Below, in pieces: positions 5,194-25,514 of a DNA stretch of 25,514 nucleotides; position 1 is the stretch's first letter; every line of letters starts with the position of its first letter. Made by a program: the position numbers and the translations under genes. Origin of the DNA: Eledone cirrhosa (Eukaryota); NCBI GenBank assembly GCA_964016885.1, contig CAXHJY010001604.1, positions 1 to 25,514 of the forward strand, given 5' to 3'. The notes beneath the pieces were generated by a model, which was not told the DNA's origin, ran no database searches, and saw only the letters and a program-made list of their open reading frames with translations.

Positions 5194-5291
5194 ATATATA
5201 CATATATATATACATATATATATACATATATATATACATATATACATATATATATACATATATATATGTATATATATACATATATATATAC

Positions 5292-5387
<96 letters not shown>

Positions 5388-5473
5388 ATACATATACATA
5401 CATATATATATACATACATATATATATACATACATATATATATATATACATACATATATATATATATACATAC

Positions 5474-5506
<33 letters not shown>

Positions 5507-5573
5507 CATACACATATATATATATATACATACATATATATATATATACATACATATATATATATATACATAC

Positions 5574-5606
<33 letters not shown>

Positions 5607-5719
5607 ATACATATATATATATATATACATTATATATATATACATATATATAATATATATATACATATATATATATATACATACATATATATATATATAC
5701 ATATATAATATATATATAC

Positions 5720-5754
<35 letters not shown>

Positions 5755-5928
5755 CATATATATATACATATATATATATATACATATATATATATAATAT
5801 ATGTATATATATACATATATATATATACATATGTATATATATACATATATATACATATATATGTATATATACATATATATATACATATATATATATATAT
5901 ACATATATATACATATGTATATATATAC

Positions 5929-5961
<33 letters not shown>

Positions 5962-6039
5962 CATATATATATATGTATATATATATATATGTATATATAT
6001 ACATATATATATATGTATATATATACATATATATATATG

Positions 6040-6104
<65 letters not shown>

Positions 6105-6105
6105 G

Positions 6106-6185
<80 letters not shown>

Positions 6186-6205
6186 CATATATATATATAT
6201 ATATG

Positions 6206-6257
<52 letters not shown>

Positions 6258-6258
6258 C

Positions 6259-6301
<43 letters not shown>

Positions 6302-6302
6302 C

Positions 6303-6342
<40 letters not shown>
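5194..6342. repeat. (TA)n microsatellite
   Basis: Direct inspection. Confidence 0.97.
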
Positions 6343-6348
<6 letters not shown>

Positions 6349-6479
6349 ATAAATGCTCTGAAATAGCGATATATATGTGAATATAGACATAGAATATTCG
6401 AAAATATTCTGTATGTTTATAATAAACATTTTGAAGACCTAATCGCTATAGAATAGAATACGTCACGTATTACAATTAG

Positions 6480-6568
6480 ATTCTCGATAAAAGCAAGGGA
6501 AGTAATCTACGCGTTTCATTCTTGTTAGAAATCATCAGGACTACATATCCAGTGCTTTTATCGAGAAT
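6480..6568 (-). ncRNA. Type I hammerhead ribozyme
   Basis: Reverse complement of 7907-7995. Confidence 0.85.
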
Positions 6569-6789
6569 GACACAGCTAGAGACTTATAGAATACTTAGCT
6601 GTGTACAGGAACTGGTTTGAAAGAGCGGTTGCCGGTCCGGCAGAAATTAGAAATTGGAATAAATGCTCTGAAATAGCGATATATATGTGAATATAGACAT
6701 AGAATATTCGAAAATATTCTGTATGTTTATAATAAAAATTTTGAAGACCTAATCGCTATAGAATAGAATACGTCACGTATTACAATTAG

Positions 6790-6878
6790 ATTCTCGATAA
6801 AAGCAAGGGAAGTAATCTACGCGTTTCATTCTTGTTAGAAATCATCAGGACTACATATCCAGTGCTTTTATCGAGAAT
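6790..6878 (-). ncRNA. Type I hammerhead ribozyme
   Basis: Identical unit copy (+310). Confidence 0.85.
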
Positions 6879-7099
6879 GACACAGCTAGAGACTTATAGA
6901 ATACTTAGCTGTGTACAGGAACTGGTTTGAAAGAGCGGTTGCCGGTCCGGCAGAAATTAGAAATTGGAATAAATGCTCTGAAATAGCGATATATATGTGA
7001 ATATAGACATAGAATATTCGAAAATATTCTGTATGTTTATAATAAACATTTTGAAGACCTAATCGCTATAGAATAGAATACGTCACGTATTACAATTAG

Positions 7100-7188
7100 A
7101 TTCTCGATAAAAGCAAGGGAAGTAATCTACGCGTTTCATTCTTGTTAGAAATCATCAGGACTACATATCCAGTGCTTTTATCGAGAAT
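7100..7188 (-). ncRNA. Type I hammerhead ribozyme
   Basis: Identical unit copy. Confidence 0.85.
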
Positions 7189-7409
7189 GACACAGCTAGA
7201 GACTTATAGAATACTTAGCTGTGTACAGGAACTGGTTTGAAAGAGCGGTTGCCGGTCCGGCAGAAATTAGAAATTGGAATAAATGCTCTGAAATAGCGAT
7301 ATATATGTGAATATAGACATAGAATATTCGAAAATATTCTGTATGTTTATAATAAACATTTTGAAGACCTAATCGCTATAGAATAGAATACGTCACGTAT
7401 TACAATTAG

Positions 7410-7498
7410 ATTCTCGATAAAAGCAAGGGAAGTAATCTACGCGTTTCATTCTTGTTAGAAATCATCAGGACTACATATCCAGTGCTTTTATCGAGAAT
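7410..7498 (-). ncRNA. Type I hammerhead ribozyme
   Basis: Identical unit copy; the next copy (from 7720) is cut inside CUGAUGA by the inversion junction. Confidence 0.85.
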
Positions 7499-7906
7499 GA
7501 CACAGCTAGAGACTTATAGAATACTTAGCTGTGTACAGGAACTGGTTTGAAAGAGCGGTTGCCGGTCCGGCAGAAATTAGAAATTGGAATAAATGCTCTG
7601 AAATAGCGATATATATGTGAATATAGACATAGAATATTCGAAAATATTCTGTATGTTTATAATAAACATTTTGAAGACCTAATCGCTATAGAATAGAATA
7701 CGTCACGTATTACAATTAGATTCTCGATAAAAGCAAGGGAAGTAATCTACGCGTTTCATTCTTGTTAGAAATCGATGTCTATATTCACATATATATCGCT
7801 ATTTCAGAGCATTTATTCCAATTTCTAATTTCTGCCGGACCGGCAACCGCTCTTTCAAACCAGTTCCTGTACACAGCTAAGTATTCTATAAGTCTCTAGC
7901 TGTGTC

Positions 7907-7995
7907 ATTCTCGATAAAAGCACTGGATATGTAGTCCTGATGATTTCTAACAAGAATGAAACGCGTAGATTACTTCCCTTGCTTTTATCGAGAAT
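7907..7995 (+). ncRNA. Type I hammerhead ribozyme
   Basis: Stem I gtagtc (7931-36)/gattac (7968-73); core CTGATGA 7937-43; stem II t-ttct-aaca-agaa-t; GAAA 7958-61; palindromic stem III ACGCGT; GUA triplet with cleavage after 7967; distal 16-bp stem attctcgataaaagca/tgcttttatcgagaat. Confidence 0.88.
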
Positions 7996-8216
7996 CTAAT
8001 TGTAATACGTGACGTATTCTATTCTATAGCGATTAGGTCTTCAAAATGTTTATTATAAACATACAGAATATTTTCGAATATTCTATGTCTATATTCACAT
8101 ATATATCGCTATTTCAGAGCATTTATTCCAATTTCTAATTTCTGCCGGACCGGCAACCGCTCTTTCAAACCAGTTCCTGTACACAGCTAAGTATTCTATA
8201 AGTCTCTAGCTGTGTC

Positions 8217-8305
8217 ATTCTCGATAAAAGCACTGGATATGTAGTCCTGATGATTTCTAACAAGAATGAAACGCGTAGATTACTTCCCTTGCTTTTATCG
8301 AGAAT
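8217..8305 (+). ncRNA. Type I hammerhead ribozyme
   Basis: Identical unit copy (+310). Confidence 0.85.
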
Positions 8306-8526
8306 CTAATTGTAATACGTGACGTATTCTATTCTATAGCGATTAGGTCTTCAAAATGTTTATTATAAACATACAGAATATTTTCGAATATTCTATGTCT
8401 ATATTCACATATATATCGCTATTTCAGAGCATTTATTCCAATTTCTAATTTCTGCCGGACCGGCAACCGCTCTTTCAAACCAGTTCCTGTACACAGCTAA
8501 GTATTCTATAAGTCTCTAGCTGTGTC

Positions 8527-8615
8527 ATTCTCGATAAAAGCACTGGATATGTAGTCCTGATGATTTCTAACAAGAATGAAACGCGTAGATTACTTCCCTT
8601 GCTTTTATCGAGAAT
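8527..8615 (+). ncRNA. Type I hammerhead ribozyme
   Basis: Identical unit copy. Confidence 0.85.
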
Positions 8616-8836
8616 CTAATTGTAATACGTGACGTATTCTATTCTATAGCGATTAGGTCTTCAAAATGTTTATTATAAACATACAGAATATTTTCGAATA
8701 TTCTATGTCTATATTCACATATATATCGCTATTTCAGAGCATTTATTCCAATTTCTAATTTCTGCCGGACCGGCAACCGCTCTTTCAAACCAGTTCCTGT
8801 ACACAGCTAAGTATTCTATAAGTCTCTAGCTGTGTC

Positions 8837-8925
8837 ATTCTCGATAAAAGCACTGGATATGTAGTCCTGATGATTTCTAACAAGAATGAAACGCGTAGAT
8901 TACTTCCCTTGCTTTTATCGAGAAT
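8837..8925 (+). ncRNA. Type I hammerhead ribozyme
   Basis: Identical unit copy. Confidence 0.85.
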
Positions 8926-9146
8926 CTAATTGTAATACGTGACGTATTCTATTCTATAGCGATTAGGTCTTCAAAATGTTTATTATAAACATACAGAATA
9001 TTTTCGAATATTCTATGTCTATATTCACATATATATCGCTATTTCAGAGCATTTATTCCAATTTCTAATTTCTGCCGGACCGGCAACCGCTCTTTCAAAC
9101 CAGTTCCTGTACACAGCTAAGTATTCTATAAGTCTCTAGCTGTGTC

Positions 9147-9235
9147 ATTCTCGATAAAAGCACTGGATATGTAGTCCTGATGATTTCTAACAAGAATGAA
9201 ACGCGTAGATTACTTCCCTTGCTTTTATCGAGAAT
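9147..9235 (+). ncRNA. Type I hammerhead ribozyme
   Basis: Identical unit copy. Confidence 0.85.
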
Positions 9236-9456
9236 CTAATTGTAATACGTGACGTATTCTATTCTATAGCGATTAGGTCTTCAAAATGTTTATTATAAAC
9301 ATACAGAATATTTTCGAATATTCTATGTCTATATTCACATATATATCGCTATTTCAGAGCATTTATTCCAATTTCTAATTTCTGCCGGACCGGCAACCGC
9401 TCTTTCAAACCAGTTCCTGTACACAGCTAAGTATTCTATAAGTCTCTAGCTGTGTC

Positions 9457-9545
9457 ATTCTCGATAAAAGCACTGGATATGTAGTCCTGATGATTTCTAA
9501 CAAGAATGAAACGCGTAGATTACTTCCCTTGCTTTTATCGAGAAT
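9457..9545 (+). ncRNA. Type I hammerhead ribozyme
   Basis: Identical unit copy (gtagtcctgatga at 9481). Confidence 0.85.
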
Positions 9546-9647
9546 CTAATTGTAATACGTGACGTATTCTATTCTATAGCGATTAGGTCTTCAAAATGTT
9601 TATTATAAACATACAGAATATTTTCGAATATTCTATGTCTATATTCA

Positions 9648-11284
<1,637 letters not shown>

Positions 11285-11431
11285 AAGCTTGAAACTAGTA
11301 CATCGTTCCTGTGTCAGTGTTGAACAAAAAGGTGACGTGGTTGCCTTAACACCGTATGGCATAAATTCAGGCTGTTCAGTTTGTTTACAAACGAACAAAG
11401 CGACGTTAGCGCCGCTAAACTGATACGTGCA
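11285..11431. other. Unassigned non-coding island (copy 2)
   Basis: Identical to 1534-1680. Confidence 0.4.
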
Positions 11432-11672
11432 TATATGTATGTGTACCTGTATGCATATGTATGTATATATGTATATATATATATATATATGTGCATGCTA
11501 CTGTACGTCTGTATACATATATGTATGTACGTATACATGCATACTTACATTTAAGTAAGTGCCATACTAAGAGTGAGAAATGAAATTTCGTTTTCATTTT
11601 GTTTCAATATATGTATATATATATATGTATATGTATATATATATGTATATGGATATATATATGTATATATAT

Positions 11673-11704
<32 letters not shown>

Positions 11705-11707
11705 GAT

Positions 11708-12040
11708 GGAGGCACATGGCTTAGTGGTTAGAGCATTGGCCTTGCAATCGAAAGGTTGTGAGTTCAATTCTCAGACTGGGTGATGTGTTGTTTCCTTGAG
11801 CAAGACACTTTATTTCACATTGCTCCAGTTTACTCAGCTGTAGAAATGCGATGATAGGGACTGGGGTCTATATCATTCCACTGCAAAGTGGTCGTGGAGG
11901 TGCCACGGCAAAAAAGCACCCAGCACTCACTGTAAATGAGGTTGGTGTTAGGAAGGGCATCCAGCTGTAGAAATCAAGCCAAAATCAGTTCCCATCCCAC
12001 CCTTGCAAGCAGGGAAAAAGCGGACGTAAAATGTAAAATG
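11708..12040 (+). mobile_element. tRNA-derived CORE-type SINE with RTE-derived 3' part (copy 2)
   Basis: Identical to 1961-2293. Confidence 0.85.
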
Positions 12041-12042
12041 AA

Positions 12043-12093
<51 letters not shown>

Positions 12094-12127
12094 GTATATG
12101 TATATATATATATATGTATATGTATAT

Positions 12128-12161
<34 letters not shown>

Positions 12162-12176
12162 GTATATGTATATATA

Positions 12177-12434
12177 TTTGCTAACCAGCAAAAATCCAAA
12201 CAGAACTGGTCTGATAATGAAATCGACATTCTAATAAACACATGGCATTGCCTTTCCCAAACAGAAGATATAGATGCTTCATCTCTGAACGACATTGCTA
12301 AACGTACAGTTCAATTTTTGAAAACTCGATCTGAACAACAGATTCAAAATAAATTAAAGCAAATCGAAATTGCTTTTAAATTAATCAATAAACATTTGGA
12401 TAAACTACGGTGTGTTTTCTCTTCGAATGCTGTC

Positions 12435-12465
<31 letters not shown>

Positions 12466-13325
12466 AGCAGCTACAACAGCAACAACAACAACAGTTACAA
12501 CAACAACATCAACAGCAACAACAACGACAACAGTGTGAACCACTCCTTGATTCATCAACAATGGCCGATCTACTAAATGAAACTATTGACCCCCCAGTAG
12601 CCTCTGTCTCACAGCATGAAACTCCACATCCTTTCTCTGGCCCAGCAGTCCAATCATCACCACTGCCAACATCTCTGCCTACTACTACTACTACTACTAC
12701 AACATTTTTGTCTACTGCTATGTCAAGGAATTTACCTTCTAATACCAGTACAAGAACTCTCCCTCCCACAGTCCACAAAGGTCGTCAAATCCTACCCAAA
12801 CCATCATCTACACCTCTCACAACACACACACCCACATACCCACCCACTCGAAACCCCATCATTTGCCGCTACTCTCTACGCTATAGAATATGTACGGATA
12901 GTGGCTGCAAATTCACCCATTTACCTAGGACAAAACGATCTATCCCCACAAACAGCCACCACCATAATACATACTCTAATTTAACACCAACACAACCACC
13001 AATAACTCAAACAAGGAATCCACAAATCTGCCGTTTTTCCCTGCGAGACAGATTGTGTTTAGACCGGGATTGTCCCTTTACCCATCTCCCGGGGACCCGT
13101 CGGACAAATGAAAATAAAATTAAAAATAAAAGCAAAAACAAAAACCATAACCTACATAAAAATAACCACTACCACAGTCACCAACAGTCTTCTAAACAGG
13201 AAACTTCTTCCTCTTTTTTAGCCATAATGAATCTGGCAAAAGAACTGGAAAAAAACATTCGAGCTATCACCCAGCACCACCCTCCACTATCACCCCACTG
13301 CACAAACTCCCATTGCTGCCATTAA
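12177..13325 (+). CDS. LINE ORF1 (5'-partial): Myb/SANT-like domain, poly-Q, Pro/Thr linker, two CCCH zinc fingers
   Basis: [13 protein letters not shown]...[13 protein letters not shown]; [19 protein letters not shown] and [19 protein letters not shown] (C-x8-C-x4-C-x3-H). Confidence 0.75.
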
Positions 13326-16300
13326 CAAACAAACAAATTAACAACACACCAAAACAATTAAAACCATCCACTCTCGCCTCTACATTTTTGCTTAACGCCC
13401 AAGGCATCAGCCCTTCCACCAATACTCAAAAATGGAAGATCAAATTCCTGGAGGACTGGATTGATGTCCATCCAAACCACATCCCTTTCTTCGTCCTCAC
13501 TGAAACCCATCTCAGTAACCTCCACTTGGAAGCCGAGGTGAAAGTGAAAAATTTCAAAGCCATCCGTGCTGATCGCGCTGGCAGAAGAAAGGGCGGAACT
13601 GCCATTTATGTCCATAATTCTTTCTCAACAGAGGCTATGAACATATTCACTAATGGATACTGTGAGGCAGTCACTGTATTCAGTCAAACCAACAACCTAT
13701 TAGTAGTTGGGCTCTATAGGCCACCCCAAACGCCTGTACCATGCTTCAAGGAATGCCTCAACAGCATAAAGTGTTTCATCCAAGAGTGTCACCCTGACAA
13801 CATCTTAATGATGGGGGACTTCAACCTCCCCGGAGTTGACTGGTCCACAAACAGCCTGCCACCAGGTTCTTCTGCCTCAACCTCTGACAGGGAAGCTGTG
13901 GAATCGCTTCTTGACTTCATGGATGATTTCTTCCTATCCCAACTGGTGCTCGAACCAACGAGGTGCCACAAAAACGTCCTAGACTTAATTTTCAGCAATC
14001 ACACTGACAATATCCACAATATTGCAGTGGAGAAAACTCTACTCTCTGATCATGACATGGTTCTCTGTGATCTGAGATTCCACCGTCCAATATACAAACC
14101 CAATGTCATCTCTCCTGTCCATCCGTTTGACGCTATGGATTTCCACAATGCAAACTGGGAAGCGATCAGTCATGATCTTGCACATGTCGACTGGTCCTTC
14201 ACGCACACTCATACACCCACTAACATCAAAAAGTCCTGGCAGACATTTGTGGACACTGTTACAAACATATGTGCTAAACACACCCCATTAAGAACTATAA
14301 ACAAATCTAAGAGCAGAATCCCTAGAAATAGAAAAACGCTCATCAGAAAAATTAAGAGAACGAACAAAAAAATCAACAAGCTGAAATACTGTCAGCAGCA
14401 ACACATCAACTTGACTGCCATTTCATCACTAGAGATTAAAAAACATAACCTCCAAAACAACATAATGTCCCTCATCAACAATCAGAGAAGAGCTGAAGAG
14501 GCCTGGGCCATTGAGAAGATCAAACTCAATCCCAAAGTGTTCTTTTCATTTGCAAAAAAACACAAAATCACTGGCTCTACTGTTGGCCCTCTAATTGATG
14601 AAAATGGCACTCTTCAAGACAATGCTAAAACCATGGGTGAGATACTGCAGAAACAATACTGCTCTGTTTTCAGCAATCCTGATATGGCCGATCTGGGCTG
14701 TATCGGCGATGTGCTACTCCCCATTACACCTTATCGGACATAACGTTTGGCGCCCCTGATGTCTTGGCGGCAATAAAGGAAATCAAGCATAATTCAGCAG
14801 TAGGTCCCGATAGGTTCCCTGCTTGTGTCTTGAAGGCGTATCAACACCAACTTGCTTCTCCTCTTGCCAATCTGTGGCGGAACTCACTGGATGCTGGATA
14901 TGTGCCAGAAAACCTTCTATCCCAGTCTGTTGTCCCAGTTTTCAAAAAGGGAAACAAATCCCTTGCCGTGAATTACCGTCCAATCTCACTCACCTCTCAT
15001 ATCATTAAGGTATTTGAGCGAGTGGTGAGATCGCGAATGACCCACTTCCTTGAGAGTAACAATATGCTGAACTCCAACCAGCATGGATTCCGTAATGGAA
15101 GGGATTGCCTGACGCAACTACTGCATCACTTTGATGACATTTTGAGAGCCTTGGGAGAGGGTTCCAACACTGATGTTATCTACCTTGATTTCAGCAAGGC
15201 CTTTGACAGGGTTGATCATAACATTCTACTGAGAAAGCTGTCCAATATTGGTGTCACTGGAAAGCTGCTGCAGTGGATCAAGAGCTTCCTGTCAAACAGA
15301 ACCCAACATGTTGTAGTTGAGGGAGTCAAATCAAGCCCAGCCAAAGTCAGTAGTGGAGTCCCACAAGGCAGTGTTGGGCCCACTTCTCTTCATCATCTAT
15401 ATTAATGACATCACTGACATCATCAAACACAGCAACATTAAAATTTTCGCTGATGATTCCAAGCTCCAAAAGGTCATCAATGGCGTGGATGACCGGATAA
15501 GCCTTCAGTCAGACCTACTGGCTGTTACCCAATGGGCAGAAAAGAATAACATGTTACTGAACGAAGACAAATTCGAACTGATCCACTTTGGAAAAGAGGA
15601 TGCTCTGAAACTCCCGTACTCCCTTCCCTCCGGGGAAACTCTCGTGGCATCTAACAACATCAGAGACTTGGGAGTAACCGTGGACAGCAACATAAGCTGG
15701 ACCACGCATATAAGCAGCAAAGTTGACATGGCCCGCAGAATGTGTTCCTGGATCCTCAGAACCTTCCAGTCGAGAGATTCCCGCACCATTATCCTTCTCT
15801 TCTCTACTTTCGCCCGACCACACCTTGAATACTGTTGTCCACTGTGGTCTCCCCACACGAAACAAAGTATCATGAAACTTGAAGCTCCTCAAAGGGCAAT
15901 CACGAAAAAGATAGATGGCATGTCAGACCTTGACTACTGGGGTCGATTGGAAAACCTGAAACTTTACTCACTCAAACGTCGCCGTGAGCGTTATATTATC
16001 TGCATGATGTGGAAAATGTTCCATCATCACTGCCCAAATGATGTTGGCATCGCCTTCAAGATACACCCAAGGCTTGGGCCCCGTGCTATCCGTCCCATTC
16101 AAAAATCTAAATCGCAACTCATAACAACAATACGGCACAATTATTTCACCTCAATCGGCCCTGCTCTCTTCAACATCACACCAGGACACGTCAAAACAGA
16201 AACTGACCACACAAAATTCAAGAAGTCTTTGGACAAATTCCTCCAAGTAATCCCGGACAAACCACCCACACCCGGATATGTCTCCGCAAACAGTAATTCT

Positions 16301-16333
16301 CTTCTCGAATGGGCCATGGTGCCCAAATCCTGA
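13220..16333 (+). pseudogene. LINE ORF2 (APE endonuclease + reverse transcriptase) with two frameshifts
   Basis: LNAQG, TETHL, YRPP, GDFN, LDLIF, SDH; NYRPISLTS, QHGFR, YLDFSKAFD, GVPQGS/VLGP, FADD; frameshifts near ~14720 and ~15372 (ORF pieces 13313-14743, 14764-15405, 15317-16333). Confidence 0.92.
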
Positions 16334-16472: not shown

Positions 16473-17710
16473 CTAGAGAATAAATTCCAAACCTGGAAGC
16501 AGGGACTAGAGAGAAAGGGCCTCAAAGTCAACATAACAAAGACTAAGGTCCTTGTAAGTAGACGAGAAAACAGAACCCAGATCCCCTCAGGGAAATGGCC
16601 TTGCTCAGTATGTAGGAAAGGTGTAGGTAGAAACTCCATTCTCTGCCCCAAATGCAAACAATGGGTACACAAGAGATGTAGCGGGATCTCAGGAAGCTTA
16701 ATTAAGAATGTAGGATTCACATGCAGCAGCTGTGCTGAAACAGCAAGCAAACAGCCACAGGAAACAAGTACCACCAATCTCTGGGAGGGCCCTGTAGAAA
16801 CAGTAGACAGCTTCTGCTACCTAGGTGACCGAATTAGCAACGGAGGTGGGTGCTCAGAAAGTACAATAACTAGGGTAAGAACGGGATGGAAGAAGTTTAG
16901 GGAACTACTACCACTGCTAGCTGCAAAAGGCTTCTCCCTCAGAATGAAAGGCAGACTGTATGATGCGTGTATCCGAACAGCGATGTTGCATGGTAGTGAG
17001 ACCTGGGCGCTGAAGGTGGAAGACTTACGTAGATTAGAGAGAAACGAAGCCTGCATGCTCCGATGGATGTGTAACAGTAATATACGTGAACGACAAAGCA
17101 TAAATGAATTGAGAGAGAGACTGAGCATAAGAGGAATCAAATGCTGCGTGCAGGAGAGGCGGTTACGCTGGTATGGACATGTGATGCGTATGAAGGATGA
17201 CAGCTGCATAAAAAGGTGCAGAGCACTAGAAGTTGATGGAAACCGCGGAGTGGGGAGACCCAAGATGACTTGGGATGAGGTGATAAAAGCCGACCTTACC
17301 CAACTACACCTCTCAAAGTCAATGACACACGACCGTGACTTCTGGCGTCACGCAGTAATACAGGGTACCCGACCTCCCATGGGTACATGCTGAAGCATAT
17401 AAACAATATGCACCCCCCCCCCCCCCCCCCTCCACCGCAAGGTGGCCGTGGAGGTGCCACGGCAAAAAAGCACCCAGCCCACACTGTAAAGTGGACGTGT
17501 AGGCGCCACAAAAAAGCACCCAGCACTCACTGTAAATGAGGTTGGTGTTAGGAAGGGCATCCAGCTGTAGAAATCAAGCCAGATCAGTTCCTGTATGAGC
17601 AAGGCATGGTCAGCCGACCAGACACTGCCCACAACAGGACAACCCGTCTAACCCATGCTAGCGTGGAAGAACGGACGTAAAACGGTGATGATGATGATGA
17701 TGATGATGAT
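16473..17710 (+). mobile_element. RTE-clade LINE, strongly 5'-truncated, long-3'UTR subfamily
   Basis: Open frame 16473-17393 (LENKFQTWK...PHD...FCYLGD...[11 protein letters not shown]...GRPK), C18 tract, 3' module and (GAT)n tail. Confidence 0.92.
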
Positions 17711-19033
<1,323 letters not shown>

Positions 19034-21726
19034 CCACAATGACAGAGGACGGAGACATCGTTATGCTAGCAGGAGACTTCAATGGTCATGTTGGACAGCT
19101 CCAGGATGGTTACACTGGGGTACATGGTGGGCACGGTTACGGTTCAAGAAATGAAGAAGGAGTGAGACTTCTTGAATCTTGTGATGCAAGTACATTGACT
19201 ATTTGCAACACAAACTTCCAGAAACCTGCCAATCACCTAATAACCTACAAATCTGGTGAGCACATAAGCCAGATTGACTTCCTGCTAGTTAGGCAGCGGG
19301 ACAGGCAGATAGTGTCTAATACCAAGGCATACCCTGGGGAAGAATGTACCCCACAGCATAGGTTAGTTGTTAGTGATATCTCAGTAAGCAAGAGATGGAA
19401 TGAGACATATAGGAAGGTGTGGAGAAGAAAGGTCTGGAAGCTAAAAGACCTTTCACTAAAATTCAAATTTAGGAAAGCCCTTCAAGATGTATATGACGAA
19501 AAACAAGACGATTTAGAGACGTATGACATAGATAATAACTGGAAGTTCTTACGTGACAACTTGCTGCAGGCTACTGATGAAACCTGTGGCTGGAGCAGAG
19601 CTCCAACCAGACAGAGAGTGACCTGGTGGTGGAACAGCACAGTAGATAAGGCTATTAGAGACAAAAGACTAGCATGGAAGGCTTGGAAAAAGGGTGGGAG
19701 TAGGGAAGAATATACAGCCACTAAGAGAGAAGCTAGACGTCAGGTGTACTTAGCACGCAGGGAGGCAGAGAGTAGGAGGTTTGCCAATATTCTGCGACGG
19801 GAAGATCAGAGGCGTGCGGTGTTCCACATTGCAAGGCAGTGTGTCAATGCAAATCAGGATGTTGTTGGTGATAAATGTGTCCGGGATGATGCCGGTGTAC
19901 TTAGTGTCACGAATGACCAGAAAAAGGAGGCCTGGAAATGTCATTATGAGAGACTGATGAATGTGGAGAACGAATGGGAGAGAGAGAAATTACCCTTGGT
20001 AGATCCGACAGAGAGACCAGCTATTGAGATTGACGAATATAGGGTCCAAGAGGCGATTAGGGAAATGAAAAATGGTAAGGCGGCCGGACCATCGGGAATA
20101 GTTGCTGAGATGCTGAAGGCATCAGGGGACGTAGGCACTAAACTGGTTGCACGTATCATCAATCAGGCTATATATGGTGGTGTCATACCCAAAGACTGGT
20201 GCAGCAGTATTCTCATAAATTGCTACAAAGGTAAAGGGGATGCTTTGGAGAGGAGCAATTATAGGGGTATAAAACTGATAGATCAGGTTATGAAAGTGGC
20301 AGAAAGGATTTTAGCACAACTAATTAGAGAAAGGGTCAAACTAGATGAGATGCAGTTTGGTTTTGTGCCTGGGAAGAGTACAACAGATGCCCTCTTCTTG
20401 GTGAGACAAATGCAAGAGAGGTTCTTAGAGAAGAATAAGCCACTATACTTAGCCTTTGTTGACCTAGAGAAGGCCTTTGATAGGGTACCCCGATCTGTCA
20501 TCTGGTGGTCCCTAAGGAAGCTGGGTGTTGAGGAATGGCTTGTGAGGACAGTGCAAACTTTGTACAGAGGTACTCTCAGTAAAGTCAGGGTAGGAATGGA
20601 GTTTAGTGAGGAATTCCAGATACAAGTAGGAGTACATCAGGGTTCGGTCCTCAGCCCGCTCTTGTTCATTATAGTCCTCCAAGCCATAACAGAGGAGTTT
20701 AAGACTGGCTGTCCATGGGAACTTCTCTATGCTGACGATCTGGCTCTTATGGCAGAATCAGTAGAGGAGCTAGAGAATAAATTCCGGCTATGGAAACAGC
20801 AGTTGGAAGCAAGAGGACTGAGAGTAAATCTAGCTAAGACAAAAGTGTTGATGAGTAGAAAAGAGGACAAAACCCTGATTCCGTCAGGGAAATGGCCATG
20901 TTCAATATGCAGAAAAGGAACTGGCATAAATTCTATAAAATGCACACAATGCAGGTCTTGGGTACACAAGAGATGTAGCGGGATAGCAGGCAAACTAACA
21001 GGTAGGGAGAAATATGTATGCAGTAGATGTACAGGGAAATTAGACAGTAGAAGTCGCACTGATAGACACATTTTTCAAATGCGAGAGGGCGCTATAGAAG
21101 TGGTGGATAGCTTCCGGTACCTAGGAGATCAGATTAGCATGGGAGGAGGGTGTTCCGAGGCCATAGTATCTAGAATAAGGACGGGTTGGAAGAAGTTTAG
21201 GGAGCTGCTTCCTCTGTTGACGAAGAAGGGTTTCTCCCTGCGTACGAAAGGCCGGTTGTATGATGCCTGTGTGAGGAGCGCGATGCTGCATGGTAGTGAG
21301 ACATGGGCAGCAACCGCAGAGGATATGCGACGGCTGGAGAGAAATGAGGCAAGCATGCTCCGTTGGATGTGCAGTGTAAATGTGCGTGAACGACCCAGCA
21401 TAAATGTGTTGAGAGAGAAACTGTGTCTGAGAGGGATAGAATGTAGTGTACGGGAGAGGAGACTGAGGTGGTATGGACATGTGATGCGCATGGAGGATGA
21501 CCGATGGGTGAAGAAGTGCCAGGAAATGCCAGTTGAAGGAAGACGTGGTAGAGGTAGACCACGAAAAACATGGGCGGAGGTGGTGAGAACAGACCTCAGA
21601 TCATTGAAGCTCACGGTGGAGATGACGAGGGACCGTGACGAGTGGAGAGATGCTGTGCTGAATAAGACTCGTCCCACCCTTGCAAGCAGGGAAAAGCGGA
21701 CGTAAAATGATGATGATGATGATGAT
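19034..21726 (+). mobile_element. RTE-clade LINE, 5'-truncated in the endonuclease, with essentially no 3'UTR and a (GAT)n tail
   Basis: Stop codon at 21705 directly followed by aa(tga)n. Confidence 0.95.
19039..21705 (+). CDS. RTE ORF (partial APE endonuclease + RT + PHD insertion), uninterrupted 888 aa
   Basis: [78 protein letters not shown]. Confidence 0.93.
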
Positions 21727-24426
<2,700 letters not shown>

Positions 24427-24449
24427 ATACATATATATATATATACATG

Positions 24450-24526
<77 letters not shown>
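24427..24526. repeat. (TA)n spacer between head-to-head RTE copies
   Basis: Direct inspection. Confidence 0.95.
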
Positions 24527-24527
<1 letters not shown>

Positions 24528-25514
24528 ACACTAAATCCCTCCCCCATGAAGAATGCACCTCCCAACATAGACTGATAATTAGCGACCTCATAGTCAGGAC
24601 GAGACGTACTCGACAACAGAAGAGGACTATCCTCAGGAGGAAAATATGGAAGCTAAAGGACCCCACAGCCAGGAATAAATTTCAAAGCATATTACTTGAT
24701 GCTTTCGACAGTAAGGAAGAACATTTAGAGTCGGACAATATAGAGGGAGAGTGGGAATTTCTGAAAGCAAACCTGCTGTTGGCGACAGACGAGGTCTGTG
24801 GCTGGAGCAGGCCTGTAGGCAGGAGGAGAGTAACATGGTGGTGGAACAGTAAGGTGGAGGGGTCAATTAAGACCAAAAAGCAGGCTTGGAAAGTATGGCG
24901 GGATGGGGGAAGTAGAGAGGACTATCAAGTGGCCAGGAGGGAAGCTAGGAGACAAGTGTACTTAGCAAGAAGGGAAGCTGAGGAAAGAAAGTTCAAGCAT
25001 GTTCTACAACGCGATGACCAAAAACGTGAGGTGTTCAGGATTGCTAGGCAATGCGTCAAGGAAAACCGTGATATTGTCGGGGAGAAGTGTGTACTAAACG
25101 ACGATGGCACACTTGCCATCACCGACACTGATAAGAAGGTAGCTTGGAAGTGTCACTATGAAAGGCTACTAAATGAGGAGAATAAATGGGAGAAAGACAG
25201 TCTCCCCCATATCGACCCAATAGAGGGACCAGCAGTGTTAGTCGAGGGGAGTATAATAAGTAAGGCAATCAAGGATATGAAGACTGGTAAGGCGGCTGGG
25301 CCTTCGGAAATAGTTGCTGAGATGCTGAAGGCATCTGGCACGGTGGGACACACCATGGTCACCCGCATAGTTAACCAAGTCGTACAGAATGGGGTTGTTC
25401 CGAAGGACTGGCATAGTAGCATCATCGTTAACTGTTATAAGGGTAAAGGAGACGCCCTAGATAGGAGTAACTATAGAGGCATTAAATTAATCGACCAGGT
25501 CATGAAGGTCACGG
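24527..25514 (+). mobile_element. RTE-clade LINE, 5'-truncated, running off the window; sibling of 22140-24426
   Basis: Open frame [20 protein letters not shown]...VTWWWN...[15 protein letters not shown]; 25005-25514 is ~99% identical to the reverse complement of 23917-24426. Confidence 0.93.

Follow-up and report, generated by a model that had tools for sequence, protein, structure and literature searches.

How does a tandem array of a small, ribozyme-bearing repeat come to reverse its direction half-way along, so that its two halves point away from each other? The question is raised by a locus of Eledone cirrhosa on an unplaced contig of 25,514 bases (C1631), and this entire contig, out of a genome of 3.0 Gb, is the window analysed here. 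The initial annotation had suggested that two reverse transcription reactions, twin-primed as in LINEs, had each rolled several times around one circular RNA. Here, we relate the locus to its family and to the Penelope-like elements (PLEs) of the same genome, and discuss which parts of that suggestion hold.

The locus and its repeat unit

The two arms of the array meet head to head (Table 1). With register 1 of the unit defined as the base after the predicted ribozyme cut (GUA^), the left arm runs from an inner 5′ end at register 285, inside CUGAUGA, to an outer 3′ end at 165; the right arm runs from an inner 5′ end at 118 to an outer 3′ end at 130, or at 139 (position 9656) if one mismatch at 9648 is allowed. 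None of these four ends is the predicted cut site. The mid-array inversion with outward arms, the break inside CUGAUGA followed by a base fitting neither arm, the position of the junction and outer ends away from the cleavage site and the single internal variant had all been described in the initial annotation and are confirmed.

Table 1. Features of the array in the window (positions in the 25,514-base contig)
Feature	Position	Strand	Remarks
Left part, interrupted (TA)n target tract	5194..6342	no strand	
Left arm, 4.62 units	6343..7773	-	sense pointing left
Sole internal variant	6737	-	register 81, G>T in sense
g at head-to-head junction	7774		matches neither arm
Right arm, 6.04 units	7775..9647	+	sense pointing right
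Hammerhead, type I (predicted)	7931..7973	+	CUGAUGA core at 7937; predicted cut after 7967
One cut-to-cut monomer	7968..8277	+	predicted circular RNA
Site A in internal unit	8097..8106	+	registers 130-139; AU-rich; could pair with (TA)n primer
Site B in internal unit	8131..8139	+	registers 164-172; predicted single-stranded loop
Right part, interrupted (TA)n target tract	9648..11283	no strand	

The window also holds other repeats. Positions 1-2748 and 9722-12493 are a duplication, 96.6% identical, of a TA tract, a tRNA-derived SINE-like piece and the start of a LINE, and its second copy continues into an AP-endonuclease LINE (~12180-16333). Two RTE-like LINE segments that are 98% identical (23917-24432 and 24999-25514) lie outward around a TA tract (24427-24527), and an open frame of 1,331 codons at 17710-21705, its first part TA repeat, holds a LINE related to them.

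The array has a period of 310 bp with 99% matches and a GC content of ~0.34, which fits the range of non-LTR retrozyme units (~170-400 nt, low GC). No frame of at least 100 aa lies inside it, and the unit has neither a reverse transcriptase (RT) nor a GIY-YIG frame, so it is not an autonomous PLE. Each unit can be read as a hammerhead in the order helix I 5′ strand, CUGAUGA, helix II, GAAA, helix III, cut and helix I 3′ strand, with a helix I of 6 bp, a helix II of 4 bp and a palindromic helix III. With the numbering used for this motif, the cut is predicted after GUA. The motif recurs every 310 bases, in six complete copies on the + strand and four on the - strand. In Rfam the unit has no match at the gathering threshold, and Hammerhead_HH9 aligns to the core weakly (19.2 bits, cut-off 52). 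None of 100 shuffles is as stable as the folded 310-nt unit (z -4.88), whose predicted circular fold is rod-like, with registers 13-28 and 250-265 closing it as a 16-bp inverted repeat; a hairpin around site A is no more stable than shuffles (z -1.09).

Across the family, the four commonest variants all lie within the ribozyme and keep its predicted fold. Fixed variant types fall into the 43-nt ribozyme in 10 of 33 cases (p 0.012), a hint that the ribozyme matters for spread; in its core there are none among 32 types, with 1.2 expected, which is not significant. Judged by these sequence features, the unit is a non-LTR retrozyme with a type I hammerhead and predicted self-cleavage.

Five loci (L045, L049, L060, L107 and L121) share a fixed 1-nt insertion two bases past the predicted cut and ligation site, always together with a variant at register 287. 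Fixed substitutions in sense, counted over all two-arm loci, comprise 10 A>G and 4 T>C, compared with 7 and 13 among sporadic ones (p 0.08, not significant), and two loci are mosaic solely at an A>G site, register 276. The A>G skew among fixed substitutions could reflect A-to-I editing of the template.

Polarity of the arms across the family

An interior 28-mer has 16,125 exact matches genome-wide (~16,000 copies), which at ~8.7 units per insertion gives roughly 1,900 loci. The family is dispersed, with 129 end clusters in the first 258 Mb of scaffold C1. Our survey covered the window and one scaffold, the largest (443 Mb), of a single genome. It took in the loci behind the first 100 ribozyme-pattern matches. 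From the places then left on the C1 list, it added 40 of 41 clusters with several ends and the first 40 of 79 places with a single end. Copies were located by sequence patterns and loci were parsed with a circular alignment model; two regions that merely continued another locus were excluded, and a second arm of 19 nt at L117 was added manually.

Among the 95 insertions parsed, window included, 85 are two-armed with both arms pointing outward, none is inward, seven are one-armed and three are cut by a gap or by the end of the fetched sequence. Since most loci were located through their 3′ ends, and such searches cannot detect inward pairs, the fair test of polarity comes from interior patterns: in the sample drawn with these, independently of the ends, all 18 two-orientation loci are outward (p 8e-6), the bias that the initial annotation had predicted for other loci. 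The seven one-arm insertions have ordinary sequence on their inner side. The two-armed inversion is thus the normal form of this family.

For the window itself, a fold-back chimera arising in sequencing or assembly has to be considered, as the locus sits on a whole, small contig of 25.5 kb with other duplications. The assembly contains the junction 26-mer a single time. Among public runs the best matched seven of nine sequence words and none matched all nine, no RNA run was among those listed, and none of the contigs listed from four public runs bridges 7774; the junction there is hence without independent read support. A fold-back, however, would give arms and flanks that are mirror images, and both differ: the registers of the two arms disagree at the inner as well as the outer ends, the sequences past the TA tracts are unrelated, and the tracts share at most three of their first 20 interruptions at any offset tried. 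The junction is therefore not a fold-back. Moreover, the locus obeys the rule for outer ends described below, and its form recurs in 84 further insertions on the 443-Mb scaffold, all with junctions of their own; the geometry is thus no artefact. At the level of the family a chimera fails, and for the window we regard such an origin as extremely improbable.

The unit itself is present in public data. In one run it occurs in hundreds of variant contigs that are covered very deeply, and loose TA ends are seen there at one site-B position. Two runs with different organism codes (X1 and X8) have one 340-nt contig each that is exactly one closed unit, at a depth of ~30, which fits a circle or a tandem array alike; in the raw reads of run X21 no unit was found. 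Its occurrence in runs of many organism labels is probably low-level carry-over and is not taken here as a sign of transfer between species.

Fixed outer ends and variable inner junctions

Outer ends lie at one of two places in the unit, site A (registers 127-139, mostly 130 or 139) or site B (164-172, mostly 165). Every complete two-arm insertion has one A end and one B end (82 of 82), and the pairing also holds for all 31 insertions chosen via one end alone; in the window, B is the long end of the left arm and A the short end of the right. The search patterns favour 130 and 165, so that the split within each site is biased, and the A/B pairing is unbiased. Site B lies 26-42 nt further along the RNA than A, matching the PLE 'tail' of 30-40 bp, which is often present at one end only (PMC8557442). 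Site A can pair with a (TA)n primer over 8-10 nt, and B ends lie at AT matches of 1-2 nt. The fixed, differing outer sites suggest that both ends of the cut chromosome copied the same, probably circular, RNA.

Pure TA runs continue past each end (median ~20 nt) and reach at least 6 nt on both sides in 79 of the 82 insertions; because the target is (TA)n, a target-site duplication would be hidden. A search for empty sites with paired flanks among the fetched loci gave two matches, both of them other repeats ending in TA tracts. A match to C20 of a junction elsewhere in the window was also rejected as an empty site, the shared part being only a 1.2-kb piece of LINE.

The initial annotation had foreseen random end registers, an expectation that fails for the outer ends and holds for the inner ones. 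Inner registers are spread evenly over the unit (chi-square p 0.62) and are not enriched at the cut site (3 of 170 seen, 5.5 expected), and the two of a pair are unrelated, lying within 10 nt of each other in 6 of 85 cases compared with 5.8 by chance. Sixty of the 85 inner junctions have no inserted base and the other 25 carry 1-272 extra bases; microhomology of at least 2 nt is found at 34 of the 60 insert-free junctions, compared with 18% by chance. Arms average 3.8 units on the A side and 4.9 on the B side, their lengths are weakly correlated (rho 0.31, p 0.005), and 125 of 164 are longer than two units.

Two of the junction inserts are long. At L036 (4099-4370) a GC-rich insert of 272 nt has no match among the fetched loci. 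The 54-nt insert at L067 (3861-3914) is a common repeat that also lies ~600 bases into the left flank of the same locus, on the opposite strand; its identity to this nearby copy suggests templated repair at the junction.

Head-to-head PLE repeats have been ascribed to self-priming, on the basis of palindromes at their junctions (Arkhipova et al., 2013, PMC3846280). A corresponding fold-back on an antisense template would suit L086 and L121, where the junction falls exactly at the 16-bp inverted repeat of the unit. The unrelated inner registers nevertheless argue against self-priming, as do retrozyme junctions that lack the palindromes it requires, and a fold-back gives no reason for the second outer end to lie at a fixed complementary site.

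One template, and whether it is a circle

Both arms cover the ribozyme at 76 loci, and at 73 of these a single ribozyme haplotype is shared by all copies of the two arms. Two random templates would be expected to match with a frequency of 0.20, and the 76 loci hold 27 distinct full haplotypes. In addition, 14 variants private to one locus (within 85 of ~1,900 loci, ~5%) are fixed throughout both arms, for instance in 9 + 9 and 10 + 9 copies per arm at L071 and 7 + 11 at L104. Such fixation is expected when one monomer is copied repeatedly: at the sporadic load of 0.136 variants per unit in present arrays, drawing one monomer from them predicts 11.6 private fixed variants in 85 loci. The comparison of identity within and between loci proposed in the initial annotation hence favours one monomeric template. 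The haplotype of the window is among the two commonest, and the uniformity of this locus, taken by itself, therefore says little and cannot show a circle.

In dual priming, two RNAs from the same uniform source would serve the two target ends, and an asymmetric complex would assign A and B by strand. No RT would then have to displace the cDNA of the other, a uniform array would give rise to circles of one haplotype, and for L1 twin and dual priming are described as indistinguishable (Meyer et al., 2010, PMC2837659). However, the haplotype sharing at 73 of 76 loci would require one dominant source per cell, in-register variants in both arms point to a single molecule, and the A+B rule is most simply read as two sites on one molecule. 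We consider dual priming improbable and retain a single RNA as the template for both arms.

The in-register variants occur at L063, L106 and L113, where, with copies counted inward from the outer end, the two arms carry identical unit-specific variants at the same copy; at L063 the haplotype switches at the same copy in both arms and 16 more uniform copies follow. These matched mosaics support one molecule for both arms, but a monomer circle cannot produce them, so that multimeric templates or later conversion between the arms must also occur; they would account for about a tenth of events. The same three loci favour a scheme in which PLE twin priming at A and B mostly copies a long, uncleaved linear multimer from a young, uniform array, with no rolling, and uncleaved RNA is the main substrate in vitro (PMC11167929). 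Linear copying would, however, lead to ~34 in-register variants in both arms at today's load, where three events are seen in 251 overlapping units; this expectation assumes source arrays as varied as today's average, and very young sources would give fewer and narrow the gap between the models. Sporadic variants are barely commoner where one arm alone extends (5.0e-4 vs 4.1e-4 per site), the 14 variants fixed across both arms would require a one-unit bottleneck at some generation, and arms would shrink every generation unless regrown. A linear multimer as the usual template is accordingly unlikely in our view, though the least unlikely of the alternatives, and a circular monomer is preferred. 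Over 751 passes across the cut site differences are not in excess there, which argues against end-to-end jumping between cut monomers.

Array length does not all stem from reverse transcription. At L034/L035 (G000:C1:43586900-43593790), with an arm of 19 units, a 308-bp unit in both arms and two variants of period 7, there has been a later duplication of a 7-unit block, and L036, like L053, is mosaic in one arm. Expansion of a short insertion by unequal crossing over (Li et al., 2026, bioRxiv 10.64898/2026.07.22.740005) can appeal to this duplication. Separate growth of the arms, on the other hand, predicts arm-specific fixed substitutions, and the differences seen between arms are effects of indel placement, in one case beside the inverted repeat within the unit (L121), apart from an insertion at L058 and a partial switch at L053. 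Expansion and self-priming, taken together, have a very small share of our belief compared with priming at both ends on one RNA.

Link to Penelope-like elements

GIY-YIG matches are abundant in this genome (150 scored of 10,595 candidates), and the long PLE frames that were fetched form four groups. The frame at L156 carries RT and GIY-YIG domains and defines family P1, whose 73 scored matches are all 96-100% identical. Both P1 and P3 insert in (TA)n with their arms outward and with one long and one short end, as seen in every pair with both arms in view (P1, 7 of 7; P3, 3 of 3); the spacing of long and short end is ~70 nt in P1 and ~37 nt in P3. Among the first 100 P1 motifs, a hand count of neighbouring pairs within 5 kb gave 22 outward and one inward, and the latter spans two adjacent insertions. 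These insertion scars link the retrozyme to PLE machinery, by which it would be mobilised. In a comparison that covered the ends of P1 and P3, neither family resembles the A/B region significantly (82-177 of 1000 shuffles did equally well), and no partner family was singled out by sequence.

P1 is represented at L156:2770-8950 (G000:C1, ~145.87 Mb) and also at L162, L164 and L165, with RT, Cys linker and GIY-YIG; from these features we take it to be Neptune-like. Its terminal repeat holds a hammerhead-like motif with 11,632 exact matches, mostly in short two-armed insertions in (TA)n. A TGA that recurs in P1 matches was dismissed as recoding, since it arises from a frame difference in the query copy. 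Further non-coding families with hammerheads were encountered at L127:2440-2870, L156:97-205 and 1930-2770, L165:8500-8720, L168:4120-4340 and L162:1680-1810; one of them is ~78% alike to the unit, and most are outward and two-armed in TA tracts. A different, C-rich PLE at L033:3781-6501 has a CA-rich terminal repeat and a hammerhead-like motif of its own. Its adjacency to a retrozyme arm was not counted because a 200-N assembly gap lies between them.

A proposed insertion mechanism

We propose that the hammerhead cuts the array transcripts, which then circularise as RNAs of 310 nt. A Penelope-like RT/GIY-YIG protein, probably a dimer, would act in trans and cut both strands of a (TA)n tract, whereupon both target 3′ ends would prime on a single RNA, A serving one of them and B the other, as the end rule suggests. 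Each RT would then round the circle several times by strand displacement and halt at a random point. Joining of the two cDNA ends, through short microhomology or with a few bases added, and fill-in would leave two head-to-head, outward arrays of one haplotype with a tail at one end only. A minority of events would use multimeric RNA, and some arrays would be altered later by unequal exchange.

Twin priming at A and B by a PLE is very likely to be correct. The full model of a non-LTR retrozyme, with PLE twin priming on one RNA and mostly a circular monomer as template, is probable, with appreciable room for doubt. In vitro, start sites are the same on both strands and insertion is independent of ribozyme cleavage, with uncleaved RNA as the main substrate (PMC11167929), observations that count against the model. 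From the initial annotation, twin priming is supported and the LINE-type machinery replaced by a PLE-type one, for which inversion is the rule. Its picture of two RTs on one circle stands as regards the single template; the circle draws on the family rather than on this locus, and three loci call for a multimer or conversion.

On a wider reading, which we judge only somewhat better than evenly balanced, Penelope-type insertion is two-ended by default, with a dimeric RT-endonuclease, one RNA and two fixed, neighbouring priming sites; on a retrozyme circle it would become double rolling-circle reverse transcription. If this is true, the PLE tail, the inverted repeat and the tandem repeats are three marks of one reaction, and the ~1,900 loci form a genomic record of circular RNA as a transposition template. 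The A+B rule already ties the tail to the inversion, with no exception in 82 cases. For the existing in vitro system, the prediction is that a circular template should yield multi-unit cDNA on both strands, starting at A and B.

Comparison with known systems

Non-LTR retrozymes were defined by Cervera and de la Peña (2020, PMC7229834), who proposed that PLE RTs make tandem cDNA from circles. An earlier paper by the same authors (2014, PMC4209133) proposed circles for PLE tandems and noted paired ribozymes on opposite strands; in both, the circular-RNA route is put forward without insertion-level evidence. The present family resembles the retrozymes described there in its tandem units (170-400 nt), low GC, one type I hammerhead per unit and absence of an open reading frame, and the locus is a real and ordinary member of this known class. 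It differs from that account, in whose main text the word 'inverted' is absent (PMC7229834), in its head-to-head arms, fixed paired ends and (TA)n targets. More recently, retrozymes were linked to PLEs by phylogeny, with local expansion invoked and the mechanism left open (Li et al., 2026, bioRxiv 10.64898/2026.07.22.740005); orientation is not discussed there. PLE inversion, the tail and the circle model have each been published. Their combination for retrozymes was not found in the literature searched, nor was a report of two-armed retrozyme insertions, the A+B rule or PLE twin priming, although supplements and older PLE reviews, outside the scope of that search, may note the pairing.

Among PLEs, an inverted, 5′-truncated copy beside the 5′ end has been described, as have (TA)n targets for Naiads, and how tandem, inverted and tailed insertions arise is called unresolved (Craig et al., 2021, PMC8557442). 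The retrozyme shares with endonuclease-bearing PLEs the head-to-head 5′-truncated copy, the tail at one end and a microsatellite target (PMC8557442, PMC3846280). Unlike them it has no coding region, and both of its arms are multi-unit arrays of one small RNA; where these papers give inversion as 'often' and the tail as 'optional', both are nearly obligatory here.

The closest biochemical system is PAc, a Poseidon PLE of Anolis (Frangieh et al., 2024, PMC11167929). The purified protein, a predicted dimer, cuts and extends both strands of AT-rich DNA, and its reverse transcription begins at two adjacent internal sites that delimit the tail. In PAc, however, starts do not differ between strands and are not tied to the two insertion ends, the templates are linear, and, unlike those of PAc, the retrozyme priming sites have AT microhomology with the target (PMC11167929).

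Finally, twin and dual priming have been described for L1, and in L1 twin priming, too, both target ends prime on one RNA, giving inverted parts and an internal junction with some microhomology (Meyer et al., 2010, PMC2837659). There, the first strand is primed at the poly(A), the second site is variable and the parts do not overlap. The retrozyme has no poly(A), both of its sites are fixed and internal, and its arms overlap over many units. The family, being young and abundant, offers an unusually clean and testable account of an open insertion mechanism.
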